Part shown: piece after piece, positions 9,508 through 30,931 of the stretch
Layout of the letters: every line of letters starts with the position of its first letter
Position numbering within the stretch: the first letter of the stretch is position 1
Source: an uncultured Gammaproteobacteria bacterium
Lineage (GTDB): Bacteria; Patescibacteriota; Microgenomatia; UBA8517
DNA length: 64,000 nucleotides
Direction: 5' to 3'
NCBI GenBank assembly: GCA_964430475.1
Contig: CAYSEQ010000002.1
Coordinates: 71,706-135,705, forward strand
Notes under the pieces: generated by a model
The model's input: only the letters and a program-made list of their open reading frames with translations
Told to the model about the DNA's origin: nothing
Database searches by the model: none
Translations under genes and position numbers: made by a program

Positions 9508-10656
9508 ATGGAAAGAATCGTTATTATTATGCCTACTTATAACGAGGCGGAGAATATTGGACGGATGATACATGAACTTTTCGAGGTAGAATTCCCGAGA
9601 ATAAAAAATGCCGATATGCATCTTCTTGTTGTAGATGATAATTCTCCTGATGGAACCGGTAATATTGTCAAAGAGGCAATGCGAAAATATAAAAATCTTC
9701 ATCTTCTTAATGGTGAAAAAAGGGGTTTGGGTTGGGCGTACATAAGAGGGATGGAATACGCGATGAGGGAATTAAAAGCCGATGCAGTGATGGAGATGGA
9801 CGCAGATTTTCAGCACCCGCCGAGATTCGTGAGACCTATGGTTGAAGCATATCTTTCAGGAGCGGATTATATTATTGGTTCACGCTATATCAAAGGTGGA
9901 TCAGTGCCAAAGGAGTGGGAATTTAGTCGCAAAGCTGTAAGCTATTTGGGGAATCTTTTTATAAGGTTGGTTCTTCTGAAGCCTCGTCTTCATGATTTGA
10001 CGACTGGTTTTAGGTTAACTAAGGTAAAAGGCGTTCTTGATCAAATTGATCTTGACACTTTAATGGAAAAGGAAAGGTTTGCTTACAAAGTAGATCTTTT
10101 GTATCGAAGTGTTAAACTCGCCAAAAAAGTTTTGGAAGTTCCATTGGAATTTGCACCAAGAGTAAGAGAAAAATCTAAGTTTAATCCTGAGGAAATGATT
10201 TCTACTTTTAAGGTCGCCATAATTTTAGGGATAAAAGACAAAGCGAGGTTTATTAAATTTGCAGTTGTTGGGTTTGTGGGATATTTGATCAATGCTTTGA
10301 GTCTTTTTCTCTTTACGAGGTGGAAGTTTATTGGACCTCTAGCTTGGGGTTTATCCACTGAGCTAGCAATTATAAATAATTTTGTTTTTAACAACATCTG
10401 GACATTTAGACAAGAACGAATAACTGGTATAAAAAAATTAATTTATAAATTTTTTCAATTTAATTTGACCTCAATCGGCGCATTAATAATTCAGGTTGTA
10501 TTTGGAACTATTTCGGATTTAGTCTTTGGGGTAGAATATCGACAATTAGCCTTACCGTTCATTATTGTTTTTCTTGTTCTTCCCTATAATTATTTTATGT
10601 ATAATACAGTGATTTGGAGATCGTGGAAATTGCCTTGGGCAAAGAAAAACCCTTGA
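9508..10656 (+). CDS. polyprenol-phosphate mannose synthase (Ppm1/Dpm1-like GT2) fused to a C-terminal GtrA-like 4-TM domain
   Basis: N-terminus IIMPTYNEAENI...LLVVDDNSPDGT...EMDADFQHPP matches the DPM-synthase GT2 signature. The C-terminus FAVVGFVGYLINALSLFLF...ELAIINNFVFNNIWTFRQ matches the GtrA-family motif. Confidence 0.85.
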   Translation: MERIVIIMPTYNEAENIGRMIHELFEVEFPRIKNADMHLLVVDDNSPDGTGNIVKEAMRKYKNLHLLNGEKRGLGWAYIRGMEYAMRELKADAVMEMDADFQHPPRFVRPMVEAYLSGADYIIGSRYIKGGSVPKEWEFSRKAVSYLGNLFIRLVLLKPRLHDLTTGFRLTKVKGVLDQIDLDTLMEKERFAYKVDLLYRSVKLAKKVLEVPLEFAPRVREKSKFNPEEMISTFKVAIILGIKDKARFIKFAVVGFVGYLINALSLFLFTRWKFIGPLAWGLSTELAIINNFVFNNIWTFRQERITGIKKLIYKFFQFNLTSIGALIIQVVFGTISDLVFGVEYRQLALPFIIVFLVLPYNYFMYNTVIWRSWKLPWAKKNP

Positions 10657-10657
10657 G

Positions 10658-11530
10658 ATGTTTTCTAAACATTCTTCCAGTAAAAGAGAAATAAAATTTC
10701 AAAAAATGTTGGTCAGGGAATACCTAAAATACGGTTCTGTTGATGAGGTATTCCGAAAATCTGAGTTAAATTTGCCTGTATCTTATGCTCAATATCAAAG
10801 GATCTTGGATGAATGGGGAATAGTAAAAAGAGCTGGCCCGAATAATAATTTGGGAGAACTTCTGAATTTTCTTGCTAAATTTAGTCAAGAAAATATAAGG
10901 ATTGATGCACTTTATAAAAAGATGCCACATACTTTCCAGACATCGCTAGTGACTATTTATAGGGTTCTTTCCTATATAAAAGAGGGTATAACTAGAAGAA
11001 TTGCTACCGGATTAGTGATTACTCCCTATAAAGATGAAAACAAGATTTTGATAGCAAACGATATTTCAACTCCAAGGTTGGAGTTTGGTAAGCCTTTTGG
11101 TGCGCTTACGATACCTGTATGTTTTTCTAGGAAAAGGGACACAAACGAGGATGCAATTATGAGGGTTCTCCAACAGGAAGTATTTAGCCAAAAGGCTATT
11201 GAGAGAAAGATACCAAGGAGTTTAATTAAGTCTTCGCAATACTTTATGTCTTTGGATATAGCTGATGTAAGGGTTGAGATATTCCATCTTCCTCTTCCAG
11301 AAGGCTTATCTCATATTAAAAACTTTAGCAGCTTTAAATTGGAGAACTTTCGCTTTGTTGGAGTAAATGAAATTCTTTCCGGGAAAATGAGATTTCTAAG
11401 AGAAGGTCTTACAGAGGTTGCAGAAGGTTATTTAAAATTTTCAAGGTTAAGTAAACAGGAAAATTTAGTCTTTAGACCTTTCCACCTAAGATCAAGAATC
11501 AATTATCATTTATCAGAATCTTTTATCTAG
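10658..11530 (+). CDS. hypothetical protein
   Basis: 290-aa ORF starting 2 nt after the Ppm1 stop. No confident family assigned; a Nudix box was looked for and not found. Confidence 0.35.
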   Translation: MFSKHSSSKREIKFQKMLVREYLKYGSVDEVFRKSELNLPVSYAQYQRILDEWGIVKRAGPNNNLGELLNFLAKFSQENIRIDALYKKMPHTFQTSLVTIYRVLSYIKEGITRRIATGLVITPYKDENKILIANDISTPRLEFGKPFGALTIPVCFSRKRDTNEDAIMRVLQQEVFSQKAIERKIPRSLIKSSQYFMSLDIADVRVEIFHLPLPEGLSHIKNFSSFKLENFRFVGVNEILSGKMRFLREGLTEVAEGYLKFSRLSKQENLVFRPFHLRSRINYHLSESFI

Positions 11531-11534
11531 AGAC

Positions 11535-11936
11535 TTAAGGTTTTATTGGTGGTCTAAACTTGTATCCGTAGATGATTATACCTTTTTCCCCGTCTGTCTT
11601 AAGTTTTCTTGTTACCATCTCAACAGGCATTCCTATTCTTGGCTCCCCTTCCAAGTCTGTCAATTGAGCAGTAGTCATTGGTCCTTCCTCAAGTTTTATT
11701 AGGGCAAGGTAGTATGGTGTTTGTTCCTCGAATCCTTGAGGTGGATCTTCTTTCAGAAAAGTATAGGAATATACCGTACCTTTCCCACTTAACCTCACAG
11801 CCGGTGTTTTAACTTCTTCTTTACATTCAGGGCAAACATCTCTAGGGGGGAAGATTGTCTTACCGCATTGGCTACAACTTTCTCCGATAAGATTGTATCT
11901 TTTTTCTGTTAATCTCCAATGCCTGGGAATTTCCAT
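11535..11936 (-). CDS. Zn-ribbon plus OB-fold protein (DUF35 family)
   Basis: N-terminal CxxC...CxxC ribbon (CSQCGKTIFPPRDVCPECK) followed by an OB-fold region, as in DUF35 proteins. 133 aa. Confidence 0.65.
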   Translation of the reverse strand: MEIPRHWRLTEKRYNLIGESCSQCGKTIFPPRDVCPECKEEVKTPAVRLSGKGTVYSYTFLKEDPPQGFEEQTPYYLALIKLEEGPMTTAQLTDLEGEPRIGMPVEMVTRKLKTDGEKGIIIYGYKFRPPIKP

Positions 11937-11992: not shown

Positions 11993-13147
11993 TTATAAAA
12001 GTGGGGACCAATCGGGAATGGGCATGACATTCTGGGAAATAAAAGCCAAGGAAAAAAGGTAGATAGGAATTAATAGAAAAAGAATTATGATTTTGAACTC
12101 CCTTTTTACGATTATCTCTGAAAAGGCAATGTATAAAAATGGGATCATTGGCAATGAATAGCGAAGTAAGTCTCTGTGGGAGACAAAAATAGTTGAGATA
12201 AAAAATATCGCGGTAAAGAAAGCGAATGTATATTGTTTTTGTTTGATTAATCTGATTAATCCCGCAAGATTAAAAAGGTATATAAGAATTATTTCCTCAA
12301 GCCAAAAAGTTCCAACCCAGGTTTGTGAATAGTCAAAAATTTTAAAAGGTGGGAAAAAAAGGTGGATATTATCGCCTGAGTGAAAATAGGCAAAAAAATC
12401 ATTAACTCTTAATTTGTAGAAATAAAAAACTCCTAATAATGATAAGGGTATAAGAAGGATTGGAAGAAATTCTTTTATTTCAAAAACTTTTAATTTTTCG
12501 TGGGGAGAGTGAGTGATATTCTTAAACTTTGTGAAAAGATACGAAAAAAGAAAAGCAAAAAAGAGAAGAATTCCGGGAGATTTAGTGATGGTACTTAAGG
12601 CGCCAAATATGCCAGCCAGAAGGTAGTTTTTTTTATTAAAGTAGTAGATAGAGGCGATTGTAGTTGCCAAAAAAAGAGGTTCTGCACTTCCTACTGAACG
12701 GACTATGAGCCAACGAGCCGGAAATATTGCAAATACAAATGTGGCCCAGGTGAGGCTGTGTTTATCTATGTAATCACTGATTAGCTTCTGGAAAAAGTAG
12801 ATTGCCAATATTGATGAGAAGACGGTTACGGCAAGCATTGAATAAGGGTACCCAACAAGCGGGGAAAAAAGCCTTATAAGTAAAGGGAAAAGGGGAAAGT
12901 GAGCCGGATAATATTCTGCCGGCAAATTAAAGGGGAAATTTGCCATTATTAGTTCTTTATCATAGAGGGTTTTTGCAACTACCAAAAACAAGGGACCATC
13001 GTAATTTGCTACAATCGTTGCCATTCCATTTTTTGAAAGCGGAATTCCCCAGAACTTTTCTAATCGCAGGAAAAATGGAACCCATAAAAGTATCGTTGGT
13101 AAAAGCGAAACTAATATGATAAATAGAATTTTTCTAACCTTGTGCAT
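11993..13147 (-). CDS. GT-C-like polytopic membrane glycosyltransferase candidate (PIG-V/Gpi18/DUF2029-like mannosyltransferase)
   Basis: About 10 TM segments. The motif AHFPLFPLL resembles the AFFPLYP motif of PIG-V-like mannosyltransferases. Confidence 0.45.
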   Translation of the reverse strand: MHKVRKILFIILVSLLPTILLWVPFFLRLEKFWGIPLSKNGMATIVANYDGPLFLVVAKTLYDKELIMANFPFNLPAEYYPAHFPLFPLLIRLFSPLVGYPYSMLAVTVFSSILAIYFFQKLISDYIDKHSLTWATFVFAIFPARWLIVRSVGSAEPLFLATTIASIYYFNKKNYLLAGIFGALSTITKSPGILLFFAFLFSYLFTKFKNITHSPHEKLKVFEIKEFLPILLIPLSLLGVFYFYKLRVNDFFAYFHSGDNIHLFFPPFKIFDYSQTWVGTFWLEEIILIYLFNLAGLIRLIKQKQYTFAFFTAIFFISTIFVSHRDLLRYSLPMIPFLYIAFSEIIVKREFKIIILFLLIPIYLFSLAFISQNVMPIPDWSPLL

Positions 13148-13360: not shown

Positions 13361-14074
13361 ATGCAGAAATTGATTAAGCAAATATCTGTGTTTTTTCCCG
13401 CTTATAATGAAGAAAAAAATATAGAAGAGACTGTCCTATCTGCAAAACGAATCTTGGAGAAAATTGCGGAAAAATGGGAAATTATTGTAGTAGATGATGG
13501 TTCTAGCGACAGAACGGGTAAAATAGCAGACCAGTTAAGTAGAAAGTATAAAGAGAAAATTAGGGTAATCCATCATTTTCCGAACAGGGGTTACGGAAGT
13601 GCTTTGAAATCAGGTTTTGAGGCTGCAAGATTTAATTGGATAGCATTTACTGATTCAGATCGACAATTTGATTTTTCTGATATAAAAAAATTTATTGAGG
13701 AACAAAAGAAGAAAAATGCGGATTTGGTCTTGGGTGTTAGGGTAAAGCGTGCAGACCCTTTTATTCGTAGACTTTTTACATTTGTCTGGTCGAAAATGTT
13801 ACCTAGGATCCTTTTTGGTTTAAAGGTACGTGACTATTCTTGCGGATTTAAGATGATTAGAAAGCAGGTTTATCAAAGTGTTCTTCCTTTGATTGGCGAG
13901 GAAAAGGTGACTCAAATTGAGATGTTGGTTAAGGCTCAAAGAAAAGGTTTCAAGTTCGCTGAAGTTGAGGTGAGACACTTTCCTAGGAAATTTGGGCACC
14001 AAACGGGTGCGGATTTTAAGGTAGTCGTAAGAAGTATTAGAGATCTTTTAAAACTTTGGTGGAATCTCAAATGA
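13361..14074 (+). CDS. GT2 polyprenol-phosphate glycosyltransferase (DPM/DPG-synthase, ArnC/GtrB-like)
   Basis: SVFFPAYNEEKNI...IVVDDGSSDRT...FTDSDRQ (DxD region). 237 aa. Confidence 0.8.
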   Translation: MQKLIKQISVFFPAYNEEKNIEETVLSAKRILEKIAEKWEIIVVDDGSSDRTGKIADQLSRKYKEKIRVIHHFPNRGYGSALKSGFEAARFNWIAFTDSDRQFDFSDIKKFIEEQKKKNADLVLGVRVKRADPFIRRLFTFVWSKMLPRILFGLKVRDYSCGFKMIRKQVYQSVLPLIGEEKVTQIEMLVKAQRKGFKFAEVEVRHFPRKFGHQTGADFKVVVRSIRDLLKLWWNLK

Positions 14075-15714
14075 TATCAACTTGTATTTTTCAAATTTTT
14101 TATTACAAAAAAAAGGTTGAGGAATGGGCAAAGAATAATAGGCTAGAGGCAATCTTGTTGTCTTTAATTCTTATTTTAGGCGCATTTTTAAGGCTATACC
14201 GTATTGATGAGTATATGACCTTTCTTGGTGATGAGGGAAGGGATGCCCTAGTGGTAAGAAGACTCCTCGTAAATTTTGATCCGATTCTTATTGGACCGAG
14301 GACATCTATTGGTGATATGTATTTAGGTCCCCTTTATTATTATCTGATGGCTCCATTTTTGCTTCTGGCGAATTTTTCCCCGGTTGGCCCGGCTGTGATG
14401 GTTGCCTTGATTGGTGTGGCAACGATTTTTTTGGTTTGGTGGATTGCAAGAGAATACTTAGGAAGTATTGCCGCTTTTTCTTCAAGTTTCTTATATGCTA
14501 TTTCACCAGTTGTGATCATTTACTCGCGGTCTTCTTGGAATCCCAACATTATGCCTTTTTTTGCCCTTTTATGCATTTATGCACTCTTTAAGATTTGGGA
14601 TAAAAAGGAATATCAATGGCTAATTATCCTTGGGATTTCTTATGCTTTTGTCCTTCAATCTCATTATTTGGGCTTGCTTCTTTTTCCGACAATTTCTCTT
14701 TTTATCTTCATTGTTTTTACTCAATTAATTTATAAAAAATATTTTGGATTTTCAAAATCAAAGCAAAATTCTGCCCATGATAGAATTAGATTTTTTTTCA
14801 AAAACTTATTCTGGGGATCTTTAATTTTTATTGTTTTAATGAGCCCACTGGTGATATTTGATGCTAGACACGACTGGAGAAACTTTAGCTCGATGAAGCG
14901 TTTTTTTACTGAACGTGAGCTTACGATATCAGCGCGTCCTTGGACAGGATTTCCCGAATTACCTCAGGTTTTGTCTAAGATGTTGACTCGGGTAGTTGGC
15001 GGTATGAACGAGACTGTTGGTAAACCCTTGGGCTACCTATTTATCGTTTTATCTTTTGCGATATTTTTTCTATTAATTTACAAATTTAGGAAAAAGAGGA
15101 CTCTAGATCAAAAATTCCGAACATATTTTCTACTCCTAGTTTGGATGTGGATTGGTTTAGAAGGTCTTGCTCTTTATAAACAGGAGATTTATGACCATTA
15201 TTATGGGTTCATTTATCCTGCACCATTTTTATTTATTGGAGGGCTATTACAAACTGTTTCAGACTTTTTCGCTAAGAAATTTATTCTTTTAAGAATTTTC
15301 GTATATTTTTGGCTATTGGCTGCTTTTCTTCTTCTAACCTTTGTCAATTTCCAAAAGAATCCCCTAAAATACGCACCTAACCGGCAGTTGCAAAGGACTG
15401 AAGAGGTGGCAAAGAAAATTTTGAAAGAGTCAAATGGAGAAAGATTTAATTTTGCAGTAATTGCTGAAAGAAATTACGAAGGTGCCTATCAGTATTTTTT
15501 AGAAAAATTCAAGGCGCCAATGGTGGAGATTGATCCTCAAAGAGCCTCAGATACGATTACTGAGAACCTCTTTGTTGTTTGTGAATTACCAAAAGAAAGT
15601 TGTGATCCGGTTCATAGTTCTAAAGCAGAAATCGCAAACTTTGGTTGGAGTAGGGTAGACCAGATGTGGGAGGTTTCAGGTGTTATTCTTTATAGATTAA
15701 CTCACTTACGATAA
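14071..15714 (+). CDS. GT-C membrane glycosyltransferase, PMT_2/ArnT-like (COG1807-like), subfamily with GDEGRDAL...GPLYYYL motif
   Basis: ATG at 14071 overlaps the stop of the upstream GT2 (ATGA). 10-12 TM segments. First-loop motif FLGDEGRDALVVRRL...GPLYYYLMAPF. Confidence 0.6.
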   Translation: MISTCIFQIFYYKKKVEEWAKNNRLEAILLSLILILGAFLRLYRIDEYMTFLGDEGRDALVVRRLLVNFDPILIGPRTSIGDMYLGPLYYYLMAPFLLLANFSPVGPAVMVALIGVATIFLVWWIAREYLGSIAAFSSSFLYAISPVVIIYSRSSWNPNIMPFFALLCIYALFKIWDKKEYQWLIILGISYAFVLQSHYLGLLLFPTISLFIFIVFTQLIYKKYFGFSKSKQNSAHDRIRFFFKNLFWGSLIFIVLMSPLVIFDARHDWRNFSSMKRFFTERELTISARPWTGFPELPQVLSKMLTRVVGGMNETVGKPLGYLFIVLSFAIFFLLIYKFRKKRTLDQKFRTYFLLLVWMWIGLEGLALYKQEIYDHYYGFIYPAPFLFIGGLLQTVSDFFAKKFILLRIFVYFWLLAAFLLLTFVNFQKNPLKYAPNRQLQRTEEVAKKILKESNGERFNFAVIAERNYEGAYQYFLEKFKAPMVEIDPQRASDTITENLFVVCELPKESCDPVHSSKAEIANFGWSRVDQMWEVSGVILYRLTHLR

Positions 15715-15802
15715 GATTGCTTATTTAAGATATTTTTGTTGTAGTAAAAGTGTCAGTTGATCCTTTTATAAATTTTAAGTAGTGAGCTTATTTTTACTGC
15801 TT

Positions 15803-16798
15803 ATGAATTACTTACTTTCACAGGAAGTACTTGAGAGGATAAAGAAATCTCAAAAGATTTTATTAAACTGTCATCGCAACCCTGATCCTGACTCAATTGG
15901 TTGTGCATTGTCTATGTATGATGTTTTGGAAGGGATGGGTAAGGATGTTTCGATTTTATGTCCAAGTAAAAATTTACCTAAAGTATTGAATTTTTTAAAA
16001 AATTTCGAAAAGATTCAAGATGGTGTGGATTTCTCGTCATTTAATTTTTCAGAATTCGACCTTTTTATTGTCATGGATTCATCAAGTTGGGATATTGTTT
16101 CTGGCCTGAAAGATTTCAAAAAACCGGATATAGAAACGATAGTCATAGATCATCATGATACCAATGAAAGTTTTGGAGATTTAAATATTGTCGATCCTAA
16201 GTTAACCTCAAACGCAGAACTTCTTTATTTAATTTTTGAAGATTGGGGTGTGGAATTAAACAAATTTATAGCAGATTGTTTATTGTGCGGAATCCTGGGT
16301 GATACCGGTGTTTTTAGGTATCCCGGTGCAAATCAAAAAGCCTTAAGAATAGCAGCTAATCTTATTGACATAGGTGCAGATAAAGATTTGATAGTTTTTC
16401 GTCTTTTCCGTTCCGAGCCTTTTAATTTATTTAAGTTTTATTCTGTGGTTTTGAAGAATATGAAGATAGAAAAGCCTGAAAGGTTTGTTTGGTCTGCTAT
16501 CCCTCATAAAATATATAAAAGGTTAAATCCTCCTGTAAATGCGCGAGAGTCTTCTGCGAGTCTTTTTTTTCAGGAGGTTGAGGGCACGGATTTTGGAATT
16601 GTTATAGTGGAAGAGGAACAAAGAAAAGTTTGGATTTCATTTCGTTCAAGAACAGGATTTGATACTTCTTTATTGGCAAAGAAGTTAGGTGGAGGAGGAC
16701 ATATATATGCATCAGGAGCAAAGCTTGAGGGTTTACCTTTCAATAAGGCGTTGAGAAAAATTCTTCATATCGTGAAAAAACATGTCAGAAGTCTTTAA
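15803..16798 (+). CDS. nrnA: DHH/DHHA1 phosphoesterase, NrnA-type oligoribonuclease/pAp phosphatase
   Basis: HRNPDPDSIGC, DHH motif IDHHD and DHHA1 motif GGGGH. ATG at 15803; the ORF track begins at GTG 15782. Confidence 0.85.
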   Translation: MNYLLSQEVLERIKKSQKILLNCHRNPDPDSIGCALSMYDVLEGMGKDVSILCPSKNLPKVLNFLKNFEKIQDGVDFSSFNFSEFDLFIVMDSSSWDIVSGLKDFKKPDIETIVIDHHDTNESFGDLNIVDPKLTSNAELLYLIFEDWGVELNKFIADCLLCGILGDTGVFRYPGANQKALRIAANLIDIGADKDLIVFRLFRSEPFNLFKFYSVVLKNMKIEKPERFVWSAIPHKIYKRLNPPVNARESSASLFFQEVEGTDFGIVIVEEEQRKVWISFRSRTGFDTSLLAKKLGGGGHIYASGAKLEGLPFNKALRKILHIVKKHVRSL

Positions 16799-16872
16799 AT
16801 TTTACTCCTTTTTAGGCAGCTCATGTTAAAATTTAATAATCCTAAATGTAGGATACCTAGTTAAACTTTTTT

Positions 16873-18423
16873 ATGCTAAAAGGTTTGTCAAAAATTTCTA
16901 TTAAAGATTGGAAAGTATTACTCGCCCTTTTTTTGGTTGGATTTGTACTCTTTCTTAGCCTTTTTATAAGAGTGTATAGGGTAGGCGATCTTTTGGGTTT
17001 TTATTATGATCAGGGAAGAGACGCCCTTGTAATTTGGAAATTCCTTTATGAAGGAAAACCGTTTTTAGTCGGTCCAGTCACCGGTTTAGAAGGGATTTTT
17101 TTAGGACCGCTTTATTATTTTCTGATAATGCCATTTTATCTAATTGGGCGCGGTGACCCCACCTACCCATCTTATTTTCTTGCACTTATTTCAGTTTTGG
17201 CGAATGCAGTCCTTTTTTACCTAGGCTGGAAAATGCAGAGCTTTTTGACTGGTTTTATAGCACTGCTTATTTCAAGTTTTTCGTATTACATGGTATTAGC
17301 TGGAAGATGGCTAGCAAATCCCACACCAATTCTTTTAACTAGCGTCGCTATCTTACTTTTGATGTGGAAGATGGTTAATTTTAAGAAAGAAAAAGTACAA
17401 ACTAAATATTTAAATTTGTTATGGATCGCGATAGCCCTTCTTATTGGTATGTCACTACAGTTTGAGGCCGCGAGTGCAATTTTTTATATTCCGATGATTT
17501 TTGTCTTCTTTTTTTATTTATTGATAATAAGAAGGTTGAGAGTCTTACCGAAACCTAAAATTCTGGCTGCCACTTTCTTGGTTTTTTTTGCAACCCTTAT
17601 ACCCCAGATTCTATTTAATTTTCGTCACGAAAATATCCTGTTTAAAAGTTTCAAAAGGGTAATAAGTGAAGAAAAAAGTTTTCGCAATCCCTTTTCCACG
17701 TCGAATTTAGAAAAAAAGAGAGATTACTTTTGGTCTGTATTTAGTCCAAAGATTTTTCCCGGTCATGTTAAATATTCGGATCTTTTTTATCTGTCATCTT
17801 TAGTTGGACTTATTCTCGCTTTTAGGAAAAAGAAAGATGAAATCATGCTTTTACTTATATTTATTGGCGTTGCAATAGTCGGATTCACCTTTTTTCAGGG
17901 GAATTATGGCAATATTTACGATTATTATATGACGGGTTATTATTTGCCAATGATTTTATTGTTCTCTATGGGTTTGGGATTTTTAGGTAAAAGTTGGGTT
18001 GGAAAGATTATCATCTTTATCTTTTTCATATTTTTTTTTGATCTTCATTTAGGCCTTATTAGAAACTATCTTTCAGCTGGGGTTGATGGTCCTACCCATA
18101 TAACCTTAGGTAATGAACTGCAGGCTGTAGACTGGGTTTTAAACGATGCCAAAGGCAAAGAATTCAATCTTGAGGTTTATGTTCCTCCAGTTATCCCTTA
18201 TGCTTATGATTACCTTTTTTTATGGCGTATGCAAAAATTTTGCAAGAACAAAGAGTGTATTTTAGTTAAAGAAGAGGTGCCAATTCTTTATACCCTTTAT
18301 GAGGCAGATCCCCCGCACCCTGAAAGATTAAAAAATTGGCTTTCTAGATTTGAGGGTAAGACTTTTATTGTTGAACAAAAGAAATTTGGAGGTATAACCT
18401 TAGAAAAAAGGCAAAGGATATAA
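16873..18423 (+). CDS. GT-C membrane glycosyltransferase, PMT_2/ArnT-like (paralog of 14071)
   Basis: YYDQGRDALVIWKFL...GPLYYFLIMPFY is the same motif architecture as 14071. Polytopic. Confidence 0.6.
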   Translation: MLKGLSKISIKDWKVLLALFLVGFVLFLSLFIRVYRVGDLLGFYYDQGRDALVIWKFLYEGKPFLVGPVTGLEGIFLGPLYYFLIMPFYLIGRGDPTYPSYFLALISVLANAVLFYLGWKMQSFLTGFIALLISSFSYYMVLAGRWLANPTPILLTSVAILLLMWKMVNFKKEKVQTKYLNLLWIAIALLIGMSLQFEAASAIFYIPMIFVFFFYLLIIRRLRVLPKPKILAATFLVFFATLIPQILFNFRHENILFKSFKRVISEEKSFRNPFSTSNLEKKRDYFWSVFSPKIFPGHVKYSDLFYLSSLVGLILAFRKKKDEIMLLLIFIGVAIVGFTFFQGNYGNIYDYYMTGYYLPMILLFSMGLGFLGKSWVGKIIIFIFFIFFFDLHLGLIRNYLSAGVDGPTHITLGNELQAVDWVLNDAKGKEFNLEVYVPPVIPYAYDYLFLWRMQKFCKNKECILVKEEVPILYTLYEADPPHPERLKNWLSRFEGKTFIVEQKKFGGITLEKRQRI

Positions 18424-19899
18424 ATGTTTTCATTTTTTAGAAAAAATTATCTTTTTCTAATTATTATTGCACTGGGAGTTTTTTTGAGATCTTACTCTTT
18501 GGTTGAAAGATTGGATTATGCCCATGATCAAGATTTGCAGGGATGGATCATTAAGGATATCGTCGTAAATAAGCACTTGCGTTTGGTTGGACAAGAAACC
18601 TCAACACAGGGAATTTTTATAGGTCCTCTGTACTATTATCTATTAATCCCTTTCTACTTAGTTTTGAATATGGATCCAATTGCAGGATCTTATCTCGCAC
18701 TTTTATTAGGGATTCTAACTATTGGAAGTTTTTATTTTGTTTTTAAAGAAGTTTTTAATAAGACAGTTGGTTTGGTGGCGTCTTTTGTTTATTCAGTATC
18801 CTTTCCTCTTGTTTTCAATGATAGATCTGTTGTACCTACTTCTCCAATGCTACTCTGGTCGGTTTGGTTTTTTTATGCGACCTTTTTACTTCTGCGTGGA
18901 AACCAAAAGGGGTTTTTGCTAGTTGGAATACTTGCGGGACTTATTTGGAACATCAATGCTTCTTTAGTTCTTTTGCTCCCGATTGCATTGATTGCCTTTT
19001 TGCTTTCTGAAAAAAGAAAAATAAATTGGAGATATCTAATTTTTGCCTTGGTTATCTTTCTTATTATCCTTGCGCCATTAGTTGTCTTTGAGATTAGACA
19101 TGGATTTATTCAATCAAAATCCTTGATTAAGGCTTTCACATTAAATCAAGGAACAACTCTTACAAGAATAGGTCAGTTTGAAAAGGTGGTTTTTATCATA
19201 TCTTCCGGAGCTGTCTCTATTTTTTTTCAGCCGGATAGACGTTATGTTTTTTGGATCTTTTTGGTATATTTAATTTCTTTTATCTATCTTACTTATAAAG
19301 GCACTCTAAATTCTAGACTCTCAGTATTAATGTTTTTCTGGGTTCTGTTTCCCCTGATCTTTTTTTCTTTATATTCAAAGATTGTTTCGGAGTATTATCT
19401 TAATGAGGTTCTAATTGTTTGGATTGCAATTTTATCTCTTACTATTTTTGATCTTATTAAAGAAGATAGGTTTAAGATTTTTGCTTTTGTAATCCTTTTA
19501 TTTTTTGGTATTGTCAATTTAAATAGATCTCTTTCTTACCAGGGTGCATTAAACGGTTACAAATATCGGAAAGCTTTGGTGAGTGAGATTAAAAAAGATG
19601 CGTTGGAGAAAAAATATCCCTGTATTGCGATATCTTATATCACGGATCCGGGATATAATTTAGGTTATAGGTATCTTTTTTGGCTTGAAAATTTGCATGT
19701 AAACCAACCTAAATCTGGAAGTCCCGTTTACACTATAGTATACCCCTTAAACGATAAACTTTTTCCAGTTCATAGGACTTTTGGTGCTCTTGGGCTTATT
19801 TATCCAGATTATAGGAAGTATACTCAAGAGCAGGTTGAAAAAAGTTGTTTGGGTGAAAATGCAAACTTAACCGATCCCATGTTTGGATTTACAGATTAG
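18424..19899 (+). CDS. GT-C membrane glycosyltransferase, PMT_2/ArnT-like (paralog of 14071 and 16873)
   Basis: Start abuts the upstream stop (TAAATG). AHDQDLQGW...GPLYYYLLIPFYL. Polytopic. Confidence 0.55.
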   Translation: MFSFFRKNYLFLIIIALGVFLRSYSLVERLDYAHDQDLQGWIIKDIVVNKHLRLVGQETSTQGIFIGPLYYYLLIPFYLVLNMDPIAGSYLALLLGILTIGSFYFVFKEVFNKTVGLVASFVYSVSFPLVFNDRSVVPTSPMLLWSVWFFYATFLLLRGNQKGFLLVGILAGLIWNINASLVLLLPIALIAFLLSEKRKINWRYLIFALVIFLIILAPLVVFEIRHGFIQSKSLIKAFTLNQGTTLTRIGQFEKVVFIISSGAVSIFFQPDRRYVFWIFLVYLISFIYLTYKGTLNSRLSVLMFFWVLFPLIFFSLYSKIVSEYYLNEVLIVWIAILSLTIFDLIKEDRFKIFAFVILLFFGIVNLNRSLSYQGALNGYKYRKALVSEIKKDALEKKYPCIAISYITDPGYNLGYRYLFWLENLHVNQPKSGSPVYTIVYPLNDKLFPVHRTFGALGLIYPDYRKYTQEQVEKSCLGENANLTDPMFGFTD

Positions 19900-19901
19900 A
19901 A

Positions 19902-20681
19902 ATGAAAGATATATTTTTATCCGTGATAATTCCTTGCTATAACGAGAGTGAAAATCTTGAAAGAGGGGTTCTTGAAGATGTGTATAAGTTTTTGAAAACA
20001 AAAGATTTTGGTTGGGAGGTAATAATTTCTGATGATGGGTCAAACGATAAAAGCCGAGAGATTATTAAGAGTAAAATTAAAAATTTGAATAACTTTAGGC
20101 TTTTAGAAAATCCTCATGGAGGAAAACCTTGGGCACTTTTTTATGGTATAAATGAAGCAAAGGGAAGATTTATTTTATTTAGTGATATGGACCAATCTAC
20201 CCCCATCAATGAGCTAGACAAACTCCTTCCTTTCATAGGAAATAATGTTGGAGCAGTCATCGGTTCAAGGGGATTGGTCAGAAAAAATTATCCATTTTAT
20301 AGGAAATTAGGCTCTATAGTTTTTACAACATTTCGTCGACTCATTTTGCTTCCTGAAATCTATGATACACAGTGTGGATTTAAACTCTTTAGAAAGGAAG
20401 TAGTGAAGAAAGGATTTTCTAGACTTGAATTTTTCAGAAGAAAAGAGGAAGCGAAGGGTTGGAAGGTTACTTCCTATGATGTTGAACTTTTGCATATTAT
20501 AAAAAAAATGGGTTATGAGATTGAGGAAGTGCCTGTTAAATGGGAGGATGTTGATATAAGTAAAACTAAAGGTGCTTCTTTTAAAAGATATTTAAGGGAG
20601 TCCTTAGATATGCTGAACCAAATTGTAAGAGTTAAGTTGAATGAAATTAAGGGCGTTTATGACAATGTTCTTAAGGGTTGA
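19902..20681 (+). CDS. GT2 polyprenol-phosphate glycosyltransferase (DPM-synthase-like)
   Basis: SVIIPCYNESENL...VIISDDGSNDKS...FSDMDQS. Confidence 0.8.
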   Translation: MKDIFLSVIIPCYNESENLERGVLEDVYKFLKTKDFGWEVIISDDGSNDKSREIIKSKIKNLNNFRLLENPHGGKPWALFYGINEAKGRFILFSDMDQSTPINELDKLLPFIGNNVGAVIGSRGLVRKNYPFYRKLGSIVFTTFRRLILLPEIYDTQCGFKLFRKEVVKKGFSRLEFFRRKEEAKGWKVTSYDVELLHIIKKMGYEIEEVPVKWEDVDISKTKGASFKRYLRESLDMLNQIVRVKLNEIKGVYDNVLKG

Positions 20682-20730
20682 TTTTAGGCTACATATAAAA
20701 ATTTTTTGGTAATTGAAACAAAGCCAGGTC

Positions 20731-22305
20731 ATGTTTAATGAATTTTGGAAAAGGCATCTAAAAACTTTTATTCTGGGATTTGGAATTTTGGTTTTGGCTT
20801 TCTTTTTAAGGGTCAAAAATCTGACAATTTTGCCTGTTTTTAATGACGAGGCTATTTATATTCGTTGGGCACAAATAATGAAAAATGAGCCAACTCTCCG
20901 TTTCTTGCCTCTTTCGGATGGTAAACAGCCCCTTTTTATGTGGTCAATGATTCCTCTTTTCAAGGTTTTTTCCGATCCTCTTGTGGCTGGAAGAACTCTT
21001 TCTGTCTTAACTGGTTTAGTATCCTTGGCTTCAGTATTTATATTAACCTTTATTCTTTTTAGATCCACGAATAAAGCACTGATTGCAAGTAGTATGTATG
21101 CTTTATCTCCATTTGCTTTATTTTTTGACCGTTTAGCGTTGGTAGACTCTATGCTGACTATGTTTGGGATTCTTAGTGTTATTTTTGCGATTCTAGCGGT
21201 TAAAAAGGTAAGGCTTGATTGTGCAATGTTATCAGGATTTTTTTTAGGAGGTGCCTTGCTAACTAAATCCCCTGGAATTTTTTTTGCTTTACTTTTGCCT
21301 TCGACATTAATTCTTAGCGATTGGCCAAAAAATGTAAAGAAAAGTTTTAACAAGCTAAGCGTTTTTGTTTTTCTATTTACCTTTACATATTTAATAGCGT
21401 TTGGTCTTTACAATATTTTAAGGCTAGGTCCTAATTTCCACATGATTGCAATAAGGAATAAAGATTATGTGTTCCCTTTAAGTCACATCTGGGAGAACCC
21501 GAAAGATCCTTTTATTTTTCATATTAACGAGATTGTTCAGTGGTTGTGGTTTTTGGGTCCTTCTTTCTTGATTTTTATGCTTATTATTGGAGTAATTAGA
21601 GGATTTAATAGTTTTAAGAAAGAGACTTTAGTAATGTTTATCTTTGCTTTTTTCCCACTTTTTGTTAATGCCATGTATGCGAAAGTTTTTACTGCAAGGT
21701 ATATTCTCTATACTCTTCCTTTTATTTTTATACTCGCATCGTTATTTTTCAGTGAGACTAAAGAAAAAAAAGCACCCACTTTCTACCTCGAAATCTTTCT
21801 TTTTGTAGCGTTCATTGCTCATGCTTTCTGGATGGATTTTCTTTTACTAAGTAATGTCCAAAAAGCCCCACTCCCAAGAAGTGAACGTAGTGGCTACTTG
21901 GAGGAATGGAGTTCAGGTTATGGTATCAAGGAAGTAGCAGATTTTTTGCGTGAAATCCAAGAAGAAAACCCAAATCAAAAAATAGTAGTTGGTACTGAAG
22001 GATATTTTGGCGTCTTGCCCGACGGACTTAAGATGTATTTGGAAGATTTGCCTGAAATCACTGTCGTTGGTGTGGGGCTGGATCTGAAAGAAATACCATT
22101 AAGTCTCGTGGAGTCAGAAAAATCCGGAAATAGAACATTTTTGGTCATTAACAAGTCTCGCTTAAAAGCCGATTTTAGGGATTTAAATCTTAACCTTATC
22201 TCGTCTTATCCAAAAGCTCTCAGGAGCGAGGGAACCCGAGAGTATAATTTGCTTGGTCCACAAGAGGTTCTTTATTTGTTTGAATTGAAAGATATTAAAA
22301 AATAA
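20731..22305 (+). CDS. GT-C membrane glycosyltransferase, ArnT-like
   Basis: VFNDEAIYIRWAQIM...GKQPLFMWS parallels the ArnT DExRYaE...EKPPLxYW motif. About 12 TM segments. ATG at 20731; the ORF track begins at TTG 20713. Confidence 0.65.
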   Translation: MFNEFWKRHLKTFILGFGILVLAFFLRVKNLTILPVFNDEAIYIRWAQIMKNEPTLRFLPLSDGKQPLFMWSMIPLFKVFSDPLVAGRTLSVLTGLVSLASVFILTFILFRSTNKALIASSMYALSPFALFFDRLALVDSMLTMFGILSVIFAILAVKKVRLDCAMLSGFFLGGALLTKSPGIFFALLLPSTLILSDWPKNVKKSFNKLSVFVFLFTFTYLIAFGLYNILRLGPNFHMIAIRNKDYVFPLSHIWENPKDPFIFHINEIVQWLWFLGPSFLIFMLIIGVIRGFNSFKKETLVMFIFAFFPLFVNAMYAKVFTARYILYTLPFIFILASLFFSETKEKKAPTFYLEIFLFVAFIAHAFWMDFLLLSNVQKAPLPRSERSGYLEEWSSGYGIKEVADFLREIQEENPNQKIVVGTEGYFGVLPDGLKMYLEDLPEITVVGVGLDLKEIPLSLVESEKSGNRTFLVINKSRLKADFRDLNLNLISSYPKALRSEGTREYNLLGPQEVLYLFELKDIKK

Positions 22306-22316
22306 AATAATCCTTG

Positions 22317-23045
22317 ATGAACAAGAAAATTCTTCTTTCCTTAATAATCCCAGCATACAATGAGGAAAAAATTATTAAAGATACCTTATCTAAGGTTATA
22401 AAATTTCTTGCTAAGAAAAATTATTCTTGGGAAGTTTTAGTAGTTGATGATGGAAGTACTGACAATACGGCCAAAATAGCTAAGGGTTTTTCTAAAAAAA
22501 AGGTAAGAGTTTTATCTTTTGTTAAAAATAAGGGTAAAGGAGCGGCGATAAGAGAAGGTGTTTTAGTCTCAAAAGGAGAATTTATAATTTTTATGGATGC
22601 TGATTTGTCAGTTCCCTTAACAAATATTGATAAATTTTTGGATGAATTCAAGAAAGAAGAAATAGTAATAGCTTCCCGCCGTGCTGAGGGTGCGAAAATA
22701 GTAGTCCATCAGCCTTGGTTACGAGAGAATTTGGGCAGGATACATACCTTTCTTTCGAGAGTTGTGACCGGAGTGAATATCTCAGATTTTACATGTGGTT
22801 TTAAGGGATTTACCAGGAATGCAGCACTCAAAATATTTACAAAAGCCATCATCGACCGCTGGGCTTATGATGACGAGATAATGTTTTTGGCAAAGAAATT
22901 TGGGTTTAGGATCAAGGAAGTTCCGGTAGAGTGGGAGAATAGGAAAGATACGCGTGTAAAATTTAAGGATGTCGTTTTTGGGACACCCAAGGATTTATTG
23001 ATGATAAAGTTAAATGATCTTTTGGGAATATATGCGAATAATTGA
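22317..23045 (+). CDS. GT2 polyprenol-phosphate glycosyltransferase (CsbB/GtrB-like)
   Basis: SLIIPAYNEEKII...VLVVDDGSTDNT...FMDADLS. Confidence 0.8.
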   Translation: MNKKILLSLIIPAYNEEKIIKDTLSKVIKFLAKKNYSWEVLVVDDGSTDNTAKIAKGFSKKKVRVLSFVKNKGKGAAIREGVLVSKGEFIIFMDADLSVPLTNIDKFLDEFKKEEIVIASRRAEGAKIVVHQPWLRENLGRIHTFLSRVVTGVNISDFTCGFKGFTRNAALKIFTKAIIDRWAYDDEIMFLAKKFGFRIKEVPVEWENRKDTRVKFKDVVFGTPKDLLMIKLNDLLGIYANN

Positions 23046-24723
23046 GAATAAAGAAAAAATTGGCTTTCTTGTGATACTACTTTTCTTGGTTTTTATTTCC
23101 TTAAAACCCCTAACAAAACCAGGATTTTTTCCAATACATGACGATGTGCAGGTAATGCGACTTTTAGGAATTGATAAATGTCTGAAAGATGGACAGTTTC
23201 CTTGTAGATGGGTTCCCGATATGGGATACGGATACGGTTATCCTCAGTTTAATTATTATTCACCATTACCTTATTACATCATGGAAATTTTTCATCTAAT
23301 AGGTTTTGGATTTTTGGATAGCATCAAAATCGGATTTGCCTTAGGCTCCCTCATTGGTATTTTGGGTATGTATTTGTTAGCTAACTCTTTGTGGGGAGGT
23401 TATTCCGGAATTTTAGCCTCTCTTCTTTATGCTTATTTACCATATAAGGCTGTCAATATCTATGTTCGAGGTTCCTTGGCTGAGCTTTGGGGTTTAGCTT
23501 TTTTCCCCCTCGTACTTTGGAGTGCTAAAAAGTTAATTGAATCAAGACAAAAGATATATATCTTATCATTTGCAATTTTCCTCTTTTTTCTTTTTACTTC
23601 TCACAATATTAGCGCATTTATTTTTCTCCCGGTAGTTTTTTTATGGATTTTTTTTCTTTTTTTTCGTTTAAGAGGTAGCAAGATTGAGAATTTAAAAATT
23701 ATTGGAATTAGGTTATTATTGGGATTCTTGTGGGCAGTGGGTTTGTCAGCCTTCTTTATCTTTCCATCATGGTTTGAGAAAGACCTTGTGCATTTAGAGA
23801 CAATACGAAGTGGGTACTTTAGTTTTTTCAACCACTTTGTTGGGATAAAACAACTCCTGTTTTCGAATTATTGGGGCTATGGTGTTTCAGAACCTGGCCA
23901 ATATGATGAAATATTGCTTTCAGTCGGATTTTGGTACTGGTTTCTGCCTTTAATTCCTTTATTTTTTTTCCTTATTAAAAAAAGAGCGGGGTTTATTGAG
24001 ATTGTTTTTTTTATCCTTTTAGGCTGGGCTTTTCTTTTTATGGTTCATCCACGCTCAGCAATTTTATGGGAAAAGATATCTTATCTTTCTTTTGTCCAAT
24101 TTCCCTGGAGATTTTTAGGACCCGCAGGATTTTGCTTTTCATTATCAGCCGCAGCATGTGGTAGTTGGTTTAAGGAGGGGAAGAAATTTTTTATGGTAAT
24201 GTTTTTACCAATTTCAATATTAATTTTAATCTTCTATTCAAGCTTTTTTAGACCGAGGGAAATTCTTAATATTTCCGACAAGGAGAAGTTTTCTGGTGAT
24301 GAGTGGTTAAAACAACAAACAATAAGCATATACGACTATCTACCAATTTATGTTGAAAAAGTTCCAGACACTCCGGCAAGTAGTGAACCTTTGGTGTTAA
24401 AGGGAAGTGTTGAAATTCTTAAAGTGGATAAGGGAAGCAATTGGATAAGGTGGAACCTTATGGTAAGAAGTGATAGCTCAAAAGTGCTATTGCCTATGTA
24501 TTATTTTCCAGATTTTACGGTAAAGTTGGATTCTGACGAATGGAACTTTAGTAGACCGAATGAGAATGGACTTGTAAGTGTTGAGATTCCTTTTGGTAAG
24601 CATGAGCTTATGGTTAAAATAGACGATACAAAAATTCGGAGATTTTCAAATCTTTTAAGCTTTGGAGCCGTGATGATGATTCCCATTTTTTTAAGGAAGT
24701 TGAAAAAAACCTATGAAACTTAA
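23014..24723 (+). CDS. YfhO-like GT-C membrane glycosyltransferase candidate (1 of 3 tandem paralogs)
   Basis: The N-loop HDDVQVMRL...DGQFPCRWVPDMGYGYGYPQFNYYSPLPYY is conserved in the next two genes. The C-terminal YYFPDFTVKLD...GKHELMVK resembles the YfhO-family C-terminal signature (about YYPGWKAYVDGK, recalled). Overlaps the upstream GT2 by about 30 nt. Confidence 0.55.
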   Translation: MIFWEYMRIIENKEKIGFLVILLFLVFISLKPLTKPGFFPIHDDVQVMRLLGIDKCLKDGQFPCRWVPDMGYGYGYPQFNYYSPLPYYIMEIFHLIGFGFLDSIKIGFALGSLIGILGMYLLANSLWGGYSGILASLLYAYLPYKAVNIYVRGSLAELWGLAFFPLVLWSAKKLIESRQKIYILSFAIFLFFLFTSHNISAFIFLPVVFLWIFFLFFRLRGSKIENLKIIGIRLLLGFLWAVGLSAFFIFPSWFEKDLVHLETIRSGYFSFFNHFVGIKQLLFSNYWGYGVSEPGQYDEILLSVGFWYWFLPLIPLFFFLIKKRAGFIEIVFFILLGWAFLFMVHPRSAILWEKISYLSFVQFPWRFLGPAGFCFSLSAAACGSWFKEGKKFFMVMFLPISILILIFYSSFFRPREILNISDKEKFSGDEWLKQQTISIYDYLPIYVEKVPDTPASSEPLVLKGSVEILKVDKGSNWIRWNLMVRSDSSKVLLPMYYFPDFTVKLDSDEWNFSRPNENGLVSVEIPFGKHELMVKIDDTKIRRFSNLLSFGAVMMIPIFLRKLKKTYET

Positions 24724-29437: not shown

Positions 29438-30931
29438 ATGGCGAATATAAATTTTAATGACCACTTGGATTCTACTAACGAGATGACTTTAGAAATGGTA
29501 AAAATGCGTGCTCTAAAAGGTGTTTTAGTCTTAACAGGACGAACTTTCTTTTTAAATGCACTTTCATTTTTCGCAACACTATTGCTGACTATATTTCTTG
29601 AACCGAAAGACTTTGGGATTTTCTGGATAGTCTCAGCGGTTGTAAATTTTTTGGCTTATTTTTCAGATATAGGTCTTGCAGCTGCCTTGATTCAAAAAAG
29701 GAAAAGGGTTACTTATGAGGAGTTAAAGACTACTTTTACAATACAAGAAGGGTTGGTTCTTTCCCTTTCTTTAGGAGTTCTTGTTATAACCCCCTTTTTG
29801 CAGGAGCATTATCATTTGTCTAAAGAAGGAACGATGCTTCTTTGGGCACTTCTTTTTTCGTTTGTCTTATCATCGCTAAAGACCATTCCATCCGTACTTT
29901 TAGAAAGAGAGCTTAAATTTACGACGCTTGTAATTCCTCAAATTTTGGAAAATTTAAGCTACAATATCACCTCGGTTATTTTAGCTTGGAAGGGCTTCGG
30001 TATTAGTAGTTTTACATATGCGGTAGTTATACGCGGTGTAGTGGGATTAGCCTCAATGTATATCCTTAAGCCCTGGAGACCTGGGATTTCTTTGAATAGA
30101 AGTGCTTTAAAAAGACTTTTAAGTTTTGGCTTGCCTTATCAAGCCAACACCTTACTTGCGGTTATAAAAGATGATGGTATGACATTGGTGCTGGGTTCGA
30201 TTCTAGGTGCCAATGGCGTAGGTCTTTTGGGATGGGCCCAAAAATGGGCCTATATGCCCTTAAGGCTTTTTATGGATCATGTCTTAAAAGTCACCTTTCC
30301 AGCTTTTAGTAGAATTCAAGCTAAGAAAAAAGAATTAAGTTCAGCAGTTTCCCTATCCATCTTTTTTATTTGCTTTCTTGTATTTCCGACAACAGCAGGT
30401 CTTTTAGTGGTTGCACCTACTCTTATTGAGATTGTACCGCGTTATGAGAAGTGGAGGCCGGCTTTACTAGTCCTTAGTCTGGTGAGTGTCAACACATTTT
30501 TTGCTGCCTTTACCACACAACTTACCAATTTACTCAACGCTATCGGCAAAATTAGATTGACATTTAAGTTAATGTTGATGTGGACAATTTTAACCTGGAT
30601 CCTGGTTCCAACATTAGGAAAATTTTATAACCTCAACGGAGCAGCACTTGGCTATGCAATTGTTGGATTAAGTTCAGTGGTTGCGTTTTATGTATCTTAC
30701 AGAATCCTAAAATTTGATTTCTTGAAAAGTGTGGGTATTCCAGGAGTTGCAACCTTCATAATGGTGTTGGTTTTAATAGGAATTAAAACTTTTCTCAAAC
30801 CTAACTTTTTATCGGTAGTGATTATTTCAATTTCAGGCTTAATTATTTATCTTGGGGTTATGTATATTTTAGCTGGAAGTTTTTTTGTCAAAAACCTTAA
30901 GAAAGGATTGGATACCATTTTTCGTAAATGA
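29438..30931 (+). CDS. Wzx-like oligosaccharide/polysaccharide flippase (MOP superfamily, Polysacc_synt)
   Basis: 497 aa with about 12-14 TM segments. The N-terminal cytoplasmic helix, IFWIVSAVVNFLAYFSDIGLAAALIQ and the central loop are consistent with the Polysacc_synt family. Confidence 0.7.
   Translation: MANINFNDHLDSTNEMTLEMVKMRALKGVLVLTGRTFFLNALSFFATLLLTIFLEPKDFGIFWIVSAVVNFLAYFSDIGLAAALIQKRKRVTYEELKTTFTIQEGLVLSLSLGVLVITPFLQEHYHLSKEGTMLLWALLFSFVLSSLKTIPSVLLERELKFTTLVIPQILENLSYNITSVILAWKGFGISSFTYAVVIRGVVGLASMYILKPWRPGISLNRSALKRLLSFGLPYQANTLLAVIKDDGMTLVLGSILGANGVGLLGWAQKWAYMPLRLFMDHVLKVTFPAFSRIQAKKKELSSAVSLSIFFICFLVFPTTAGLLVVAPTLIEIVPRYEKWRPALLVLSLVSVNTFFAAFTTQLTNLLNAIGKIRLTFKLMLMWTILTWILVPTLGKFYNLNGAALGYAIVGLSSVVAFYVSYRILKFDFLKSVGIPGVATFIMVLVLIGIKTFLKPNFLSVVIISISGLIIYLGVMYILAGSFFVKNLKKGLDTIFRK

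Follow-up and report, generated by a model that had tools for sequence, protein, structure and literature searches.

A class-wide Microgenomates locus of predicted lipid-sugar synthases and GT-C membrane proteins, with recurrent fusions between the two

Overview of the locus

We analyzed a stretch of 64,000 nt, referred to below as the window, from an uncultured Woesebacteria-type genome (Microgenomates, candidate phyla radiation (CPR)). In its first half, three short glycosyltransferase family 2 genes, designated GT2a, GT2b and GT2c (starting at 13361, 19902 and 22317), are interleaved with four genes for GT-C-type membrane proteins, designated GTCa, GTCb, GTCc and GTCd (starting at 14071, 16873, 18424 and 20731). 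We judge it probable, at about 70%, that this cluster is the core of a class-wide envelope-glycosylation locus of the Microgenomates that works through lipid-linked monosaccharide donors. The mechanism, in which a lipid-sugar synthase is combined with a GT-C enzyme, is well known; what is added here concerns its scope and architecture rather than the principle, namely conservation across the class in an uncultured lineage, a new GT-C subfamily and recurrent synthase-GT-C fusions. The envelopes of the CPR bacteria, which are uncultured, have hardly been characterized. A preliminary description of the window had read the cluster as alternating GT2 and GT-C modules reminiscent of three-component glycosylation systems; the enzyme types and the logic of a lipid-sugar synthase feeding a GT-C stand, but the three components and the one-to-one dedication of the partners were overstated.

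The GT2 proteins are predicted polyprenyl-phosphate-sugar synthases

GT2a (13361..14074, + strand, 237 aa), GT2b (19902..20681, +, 259 aa) and GT2c (22317..23045 with an alternative start at 22314, +, 242 aa) match the Pfam family PF00535 with E values of 4e-34, 8e-28 and 5e-34, respectively. All three are predicted to be of the polyprenyl-phosphate-sugar synthase type, for GT2b and GT2c from their sequences, and the alternative of a processive enzyme or of one using an ordinary acceptor did not hold. The motifs quoted in the preliminary description were confirmed, namely PAYNEE or PCYNES, DDGS.D, and DSD, DMD or DAD. In GT2a they lie at residues 16-18 (NEE), 45-48 (DDGS) and 98-100 (DSD), and D98 and D100 do not vary among 25 homologs. 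An all-against-all BLASTP comparison placed the three proteins in one clade of mutual best matches, separate from the six other GT2s of the window and with full-length identities of 30-33%; within the clade GT2c clusters with GT2b and appears as a GT2b-like paralog.

The NCBIfam models that span the entire GT2 proteins are only those of polyprenyl-phosphate types, that is ArnC, PgfS, PpgS, AglJ and the haloarchaeal dolichyl phosphate (Dol-P)-hexose transferase, whereas for PgaC, TuaG, EpsE, NodC, chondroitin synthase and other GT2s the alignment goes no further than the N-terminal ~115 residues, the nucleotide-binding half. The best full-length relatives of solved structure are ArnC, PfDPMS and GtrB. 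A profile built from the 25 GT2a homologs aligned residues 5-221 to residues 7-218 of ArnC (E value 1e-22), and the motifs R..R.D, DY.C and H..R.FG on the acceptor side are common to both proteins. The AlphaFold2 (AF2) model of GT2a, with a predicted local distance difference test (pLDDT) value of 88.9, has a GT-A fold, and when it was used as a Foldseek query against PDB the top 21 matches were all ArnC, DPMS or GtrB (E values 5e-17 to 5e-12), with TMq values of 0.65-0.81 overall and 0.74-0.81 for the best sixteen. For GT2b the best PDB matches were PfDPMS (E value 3.7e-13) and then ArnC, and the models of PpgS and of the Dol-P-hexose transferase covered the protein over its full length. The best NCBIfam models for GT2c were PgfS (84.6 bits) and ArnC (70 bits), followed by PpgS and AglJ, all at full length. 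GT2a, GT2b and GT2c are predicted to load sugar onto a lipid carrier.

The GT-C proteins and their subfamily

GTCa (14071..15714, +, 547 aa) and GTCc (18424..19899, +, 491 aa) pass the Pfam threshold of PMT_2 only, with E values of 7e-13 and 3e-10, while GTCd (20731..22305 with an alternative start at 20713, +, 524 aa) passes both PMT_2 (E value 6e-13) and PMT (E value 7e-12; 45.9 bits against a cutoff of 22.7). The label ArnT-like that GTCd had received is good at this Pfam level only, and the protein has no sequence match to any solved structure. GTCb (16873..18423, +, 516 aa) passes no Pfam family, and its earlier assignment to the GT-C enzymes stands by paralogy with GTCa, not by a direct Pfam match.

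The AF2 model of GTCa (pLDDT 83, predicted template modeling (TM) score 0.85) has the GT-C fold. Its best Foldseek match was ArnT (5f15; E value 1.8e-6, TM score 0.54), followed by AglB, STT3, PglB, Pmt4, ALG12 and EmbA/B, all with a probability of 1.00, and GTCb, GTCc and GTCd are tied to GTCa by hhalign at 97-100%. In this comparison, with profiles of 35-80 orthologs, GTCa, GTCb and GTCc were homologous from end to end, including the C-terminal domain, at 100% probability (GTCb against GTCa, E value 3e-56 over residues 12-542); GTCd aligned to the three at 97-99% and a group of YfhO-like proteins encoded downstream at 88-98%. The three also match one another by BLASTP with E values of 1e-16 to 1e-22 (GTCb-GTCa, 3.6e-22) and, when all GT-Cs of the window were clustered, stood apart from GTCd and from a nine-member array family, as the preliminary description had proposed. 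GTCa, GTCb and GTCc, none of which matches a solved GT-C at the sequence level, are a distinct GT-C lineage, marked by a conserved C-terminal alpha/beta domain of its own and by an invariant cysteine pair.

Conserved acidic residues follow the first transmembrane segment in every one of these GT-Cs; none lacks them. Across 35-80 orthologs of each protein, conservation of these motifs is 90% or higher; they read D54 E55 R57 D58 in GTCa, D46 Q47 G48 R49 D50 in GTCb, H34 D35 x D37 in GTCc, and F-x-D39-E40-A-I-Y, the classical DE form, in GTCd. By analogy with the family, the loop that carries them is expected to face outward. The sequences GDEGRDAL, YDQGRDAL and GPLYYY noted earlier were found as described, and the other invariant features of GTCa are YLGPLYYY, SWNPN, HYLG and the cysteine pair C504/C511.

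Gene order and conservation across the Microgenomates

The open reading frame (ORF) calls placed all eight genes of the cluster on the + strand in the order and at the positions of the preliminary description. The eighth, a DHH/DHHA1 phosphoesterase gene (15782..16798), lies between GTCa and GTCb. The genes are tightly packed: the ATG of GTCa overlaps the stop codon of GT2a as ATGA at 14071-14074, which had been noticed before, the GTCb stop is followed by the GTCc start at the very next base, GT2b begins 2 nt after GTCc, and the 3' end of GT2c overlaps the next gene (23014) by 32 nt. Since scans for promoters and terminators gave no better results than shuffled sequences, and the terminator scan, which had no power here, returned no intergenic terminator-like site, the operon structure is read from the gene spacing.

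Among GTDB species representatives, 519 relatives of GTCa were found, and the best 80 loci were mapped, which include Woese-, Blackburn-, Ames- and Shapirobacteria. In the proposed check for co-occurrence in related genomes, the gene order was kept in these 80 species-level genomes, with proteins 41-59% identical to those of the window, and because it is kept at such distances the arrangement is far beyond chance. The recurrent order begins with a GT2-GtrA fusion gene (9508..10656, +), continues at some distance with a gene for a small polytopic membrane protein on the opposite strand (11993..13147, -), and then runs GT2a-GTCa-(DHH)-GTCb-(GTCc)-GT2b-GTCd-(GT2c)-YfhO-like. Downstream genes were counted in the 62 loci for which 8 kb or more of sequence was available, where GT2b was present in 61, GTCd in 59, GTCb in 57, a YfhO-like gene after GTCd in 46, the DHH gene in 42, GTCc in 30 and GT2c in ~6. 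On the upstream side, 61 of 64 loci had the small membrane protein and 59 had the GT2-GtrA fusion. The DHH gene was not detected in the mapped loci of Ames- and Shapirobacteria (for example L062, L065, L067, L070 and L077). For GTCa, GT2a and the 11993 protein, homologs show 50-74% identity, and the few with a taxonomic name belong to Candidatus Woesebacteria, the Microgenomates group or the Patescibacteria group. As a whole the locus is a core conserved throughout the class, in which GT2c is lineage-specific. Its content and order are kept across Woese-, Blackburn-, Ames- and Shapirobacteria at ~50% identity, which speaks for a core surface glycoconjugate and against a variable decoration.

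Many of the GTDB metagenome-assembled genome records that contain a typical Microgenomates locus (L002, L008-L012 and others) are titled 'uncultured Gammaproteobacteria bacterium', which looks like a placeholder mislabel.

Coupling of GT2a and GTCa and natural fusions

A GT2 gene lies immediately 5' of GTCa in 74 of 75 loci, and the distance is 150 nt or less in 73 of 76 pairs. In three loci (L012, L063 and L066) GT2a and GTCa form a single in-frame ORF of 727-732 aa, which was confirmed by translation for L012 (9308-11506). When 1.84 billion cluster representatives were searched exhaustively, the GTCa family comprised 467 clusters at an E value of 1e-30 or below; seven of the best 150 matches carry an N-terminal extension of ~230-250 residues, and six of these seven contain both PF00535 and PF13231. 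At the fusion point the C-terminal amphipathic helix of the GT2 runs straight into the first transmembrane segment of the GT-C. The fusion attaches the GT2 to the N-terminal end of the GT-C, in agreement with a cytoplasmic GT2 and with the N-in topology of GT-C enzymes, and its recurrence in frame would be meaningful only where the product of the GT2 is used by the GT-C. Of all the pairings in the locus, that of GT2a with GTCa is the only one demonstrated. The two are probably an obligate pair and physically associated.

In 11 of 76 genomes (L004, L016, L029, L037, L043, L045, L056, L057, L060, L071 and L073) the GT2 5' of GTCa comes from a separate clade and is <42% identical to GT2a, yet GTCa in these genomes is still about 45-56% identical. 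This could be a case of a replaced synthase together with a changed donor sugar.

Other fusions occur in the mapped loci. Single ORFs of 1044 and 1057 aa, at L026:11672.. and L048:15068.., join a YfhO-like GT-C to a GTCb-like GT-C with the motif WDQERD, which suggests that the two types act in one pathway. At L065:13813.. a 703-aa ORF joins a GT2c-like domain to a different polytopic, GT-C-like membrane domain. A literature search turned up nothing specific on GT-C systems of Woesebacteria or Patescibacteria, or on GT2-GT-C fusions. The GT2-GT-C fusions are natural evidence that a lipid-sugar synthase without transmembrane segments can work docked to its GT-C, and they offer compact constructs for studying the hand-over of lipid-linked sugars and perhaps their flipping.

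Proposed pathway and alternative explanations

In the pathway that we propose, GT2a, GT2b and GT2c, as membrane-peripheral enzymes, and the GT2-GtrA fusion would move sugars from nucleotide sugars to polyprenyl (undecaprenyl) phosphate on the cytoplasmic face. The lipid-sugars would then cross the membrane, and GTCa-d and the YfhO-like proteins would pass the sugar to an acceptor by way of the Asp motif in the loop after the first transmembrane segment. The acceptor side is better termed extracytoplasmic than periplasmic, the word used previously, and the acceptor itself may be a glycopolymer of the wall or membrane, or surface proteins. Domain identities, folds, motifs, paralogy, synteny and fusions are what the data show, and from these we infer the use of a lipid carrier, the direction of flow and the physical association. 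The YfhO-like proteins are likely users of the product of GT2c, of GT2b or of both.

Several observations weigh against this reading. GT2a, GT2b and GT2c have no C-terminal transmembrane anchor, with no segment reaching 1.6 in a 19-residue hydropathy window; the median values of their orthologs are 1.14-1.26, as compared with 2.20 for the GT2-GtrA fusion, and GtrB and ArnC carry two C-terminal transmembrane segments and PfDPMS four. The next-best structural match of GT2a after the polyprenyl-phosphate enzymes is a soluble GT-A protein such as glucosyl-3-phosphoglycerate synthase (GpgS; E value 6e-12). Neither the GTCa profile nor GTCd had a sequence match at an E value of 0.01 or below among all PDB chains, PMT (GT39) and ArnT (GT83) included, so the GT-C family assignment is drawn from Pfam PMT_2 and Foldseek TM scores of ~0.5. 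In GTCb and GTCc the second acidic residue of the loop motif is replaced by Gln. No unannotated ORF of at least 50 aa with a transmembrane segment exists anywhere in the 64-kb window, and a search for a small stand-alone flippase gene of the GtrA or SMR type found none. Finally, the 80 loci were the top-ranking ones among 519 relatives selected by pattern, so the frequencies describe close relatives and not all Patescibacteria.

The first two of these points would fit GT2s that are ordinary cytoplasmic enzymes, acting on oligosaccharides linked to undecaprenyl diphosphate or, like GpgS, on a soluble acceptor, and lying near GT-C genes only by virtue of a large glycan island. The structural matches to GpgS and WrtF are significant (E ~1e-11), and the window does contain a Wzx-type flippase gene (29438-30931), six conventional GT2s and a GT4. 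We nevertheless find this very improbable. The full-length likeness of GT2a, GT2b and GT2c is only to polyprenyl-phosphate GT2s and extends to the acceptor-side motifs of ArnC, these enzymes rank structurally above all others, and an ordinary cytoplasmic enzyme would not be expected to be fused in frame to a GT-C again and again. A membrane anchor is not universal among polyprenyl-phosphate GT2s either, because PpgS, human DPM1 and mycobacterial Ppm1 lack one, and the PpgS NCBIfam model (226 positions) aligns end to end. That the large membrane proteins are not glycosyltransferases at all, but handlers of the lipid carrier such as Agl23-like flippase-associated proteins, polymerases or ligases, is the least probable of the explanations considered. 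It draws on TIGR03663 ('flippase activity-associated protein Agl23'), which is the best NCBIfam model for GTCa (45 bits) and GTCd (35 bits) but stays under its cutoff of 126 bits in each case, and on the lack of any otherwise identifiable flippase; it conflicts with the GT-C fold and the ArnT match of GTCa, with the invariant DE..D or D..D motif at the position of the GT-C catalytic loop, and with the Pfam gathering thresholds of PMT_2 and PMT, which were passed.

A division of the cluster into three independent, dedicated modules, in which GT2a would serve GTCa, GT2b would serve GTCd and GT2c would serve the YfhO-like proteins, each attaching its own kind of side-chain sugar to a glycan made beforehand, in the manner of Gtr and Arn systems of the seroconversion type, is possible but on balance unlikely. 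A GT2 does precede a GT-C in all three pairs in the window, the distance is 150 nt or less for GT2b-GTCd in 44 of 61 loci and for GT2c-YfhO-like in 4 of 4, and pairs of GT2 and YfhO are experimentally established in Firmicutes (PMC7389260, PMC12041528). A dedicated GT-C for each GT2, which had also been the preliminary view, is however contradicted by the wider comparison. GTCb and GTCc are without a GT2 of their own, and GT2b is universally closer to the GT-C genes upstream of it, lying 150 nt or less after GTCb or GTCc in 63 of 63 loci with a median gap of 9 nt. GT2c is missing from ~90% of related loci though the YfhO-like gene stays, and the window holds ~20 GT-C-like genes as against four such synthases. 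The order conserved at the class level is unlike variable seroconversion modules, and no GtrA-type gene accompanies each module. Indeed, the window has no dedicated small gene of the GtrA, ArnE/F or GtcA type, which removes the ground for a three-component system; its sole GtrA domain, a candidate flippase module, is the one fused to the fourth GT2 (9508-10656), outside the region 13361-22305.

It is more likely that the enzymes other than GT2a and GTCa share a few lipid-sugar donors in one multi-step pathway than that they form independent one-to-one modules. A bolder form of the proposed lipid-linked pathway would make GT2a and GTCa a physical synthase-transferase machine that makes, translocates and consumes its own lipid-sugar without a separate flippase and that, together with GTCb, GTCc, GT2b, GTCd and the YfhO-like proteins, builds an essential envelope glycoconjugate, a so far undescribed surface feature defining the class Microgenomatia. 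In this full form the idea is speculative, and we think it improbable.

Comparison with known systems

GtrA/GtrB/GtrC and ArnC/ArnE-F/ArnT are three-component periplasmic glycosylation systems (reviewed within PMC11127046). As in those systems, a GT2 related to GtrB and ArnC adjoins an enzyme of the GT-C fold whose first outer loop carries an acidic motif, and a lipid-linked monosaccharide is the presumed donor here. The Microgenomates locus differs in that its short synthases have no transmembrane segments and no separate small flippase gene is present, in that there are several GT-Cs per synthase, and in that the first pair is sometimes one polypeptide. It is also a class-wide core, whereas the Gtr and Arn systems are accessory or phage-borne modules for seroconversion or resistance.

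In mycobacterial pathways that depend on Ppm1 or PpgS, one lipid-sugar donor feeds several GT-Cs (PimE, Mpt, Emb/Aft type, for lipoglycan and arabinogalactan) that make or modify a wall glycopolymer on the outer side of the membrane. The shared-donor logic proposed above is comparable, and GT87-like genes are found in the window as well. GT2a, GT2b and GT2c resemble mycobacterial PpgS (Rv3631)/Rv3779 in being short synthases without transmembrane segments, and the PpgS model covers all three from end to end, but the scores of 54-68 bits are far from the equivalog cutoff of 370, and the GT-Cs of the window are not orthologous to any mycobacterial enzyme.

For Firmicutes, CsbB/YfhO/GtcA have been described in the glycosylation of lipoteichoic and wall teichoic acids, and GtrB/PgtC2 and PgfS/PgfM1 in protein O-glycosylation (PMC7389260, PMC12041528). 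The last part of the locus is similar in that the best curated match of GT2c is PgfS and GT2c is followed by GT-Cs of the YfhO/PTPS_related type; the host is probably monoderm. Unlike PgfS, CsbB and GtrB, however, GT2c is without transmembrane helices, its PgfS score lies far below the cutoff of 500, there is no GtcA, and only one of the three downstream genes passes the Pfam YfhO threshold.

The GT2-GtrA fusion combines a GT2 domain with GtrA_DPMS_TM as does Pyrococcus furiosus DPMS (PDB 5mlz), the best solved relative of GT2b, and the Pfam PMT match of GTCd recalls eukaryotic DPM1 and PMT. Unlike in the DPMS/PMT pathways, nothing points to mannose or dolichol, and GTCd has no MIR domain and no sequence match to the solved PMTs.

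Neighboring genes and the wider window

The GT2-GtrA gene (9508..10656, +) encodes a GT2 joined to a GtrA/DPMS-type unit of four transmembrane segments (PF00535, E value 1.3e-27; PF04138 GtrA_DPMS_TM, E value 5.8e-13). It aligns to GT2a, GT2b and GT2c over ~220 aa, the whole catalytic domain, with 25-28% identity, and on this basis is predicted to be a fourth polyprenyl-phosphate-sugar synthase of the locus, with a PfDPMS-like architecture.

The small polytopic membrane protein (384 aa), whose gene is divergent from GT2a, had no Pfam match and no match among all PDB chains for the copy in the window, and hhalign gave nothing significant against the other GT-Cs. Because 12 of 22 orthologs match PMT_2 (best E value 1.2e-7), it is probably one more small PMT_2-like GT-C; some orthologs are named 'Gpi18-like mannosyltransferase' by JGI. 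Its conserved motifs are N48-x-D50-G-P after the first transmembrane segment, SGDNxHL and HRD..RY. Two further genes sit between the GT2-GtrA gene and this one. One (10658-11530, +) encodes a 290-aa soluble protein without a family match and occurs in 17 of 64 loci, and beside it lies a gene for a DUF35-type protein (zf-ChsH2 and OB_ChsH2_C; 11535-11936, -), which has no adjoining thiolase and occurs in 6 of 64 loci. We considered whether the 11993-13147 gene and the DUF35 gene might form a mevalonate module of the thiolase/HMG-CoA-synthase type, and ruled this out, given the polytopic nature and the PMT_2-like orthologs of the 384-aa protein and the rarity of the DUF35 gene.

The DHH/DHHA1 gene within the cluster had been called nrnA. 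Both domains are present (PF01368, E value 5e-19; PF02272, E value 1e-8), but the NrnA equivalog model NF053633 scores 83 bits against a cutoff of 350, so that NrnA itself is unproven and NrnA-like is the more suitable name. No functional link of this gene to glycosylation is evident.

Downstream of GT2c, three tandem genes of the YfhO/PTPS_related type (23014-24723, 24713-26389 and 26382-28076, all +) encode proteins that are mutually 30-37% identical and match PTPS_related with E values of 2e-4, 1e-10 and 5e-11. The first scores 20.3 bits, below the cutoff of 26.4, and the second 40.7 bits, and neither has a YfhO match; the third matches YfhO (PF09586; E value 6e-8, 31.9 bits against a cutoff of 28.5) as well as PMT_2 (E value 9e-6). 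By BLASTP the ~20 GT-C-like proteins of the window fall into five groups: GTCa-c, GTCd alone, the YfhO/PTPS trio, the GT87-like proteins (28073 and 44871), and the nine-member array (30938, 43120, 47972, 49664, 51457, 54824, 56508, 58310 and 60053). The region 23014-61723, whose GT-C-like genes also include one for an 810-aa YfhO (38340-40772), is interspersed with the Wzx-type flippase gene, the six conventional GT2s, the GT4 and a methyltransferase.

Between the GT-C array and a GT2 gene, a flavin amine-oxidase-like protein with an NAD_binding_8 domain is encoded at 61740-63032 (+); it might be a flavoenzyme that modifies sugar nucleotides. Near the other end of the window a PgeF/YfiH-like gene (PF02578) is split into a 67-aa N-terminal ORF (4215-4418) and a 153-aa ORF (4507-4968) that covers profile positions 90-237 of 238, both on the + strand and in different frames. 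The same split is present in the gene calls of the matching Logan contig (SRR11582147), and it may reflect a frameshift or a pseudogene.

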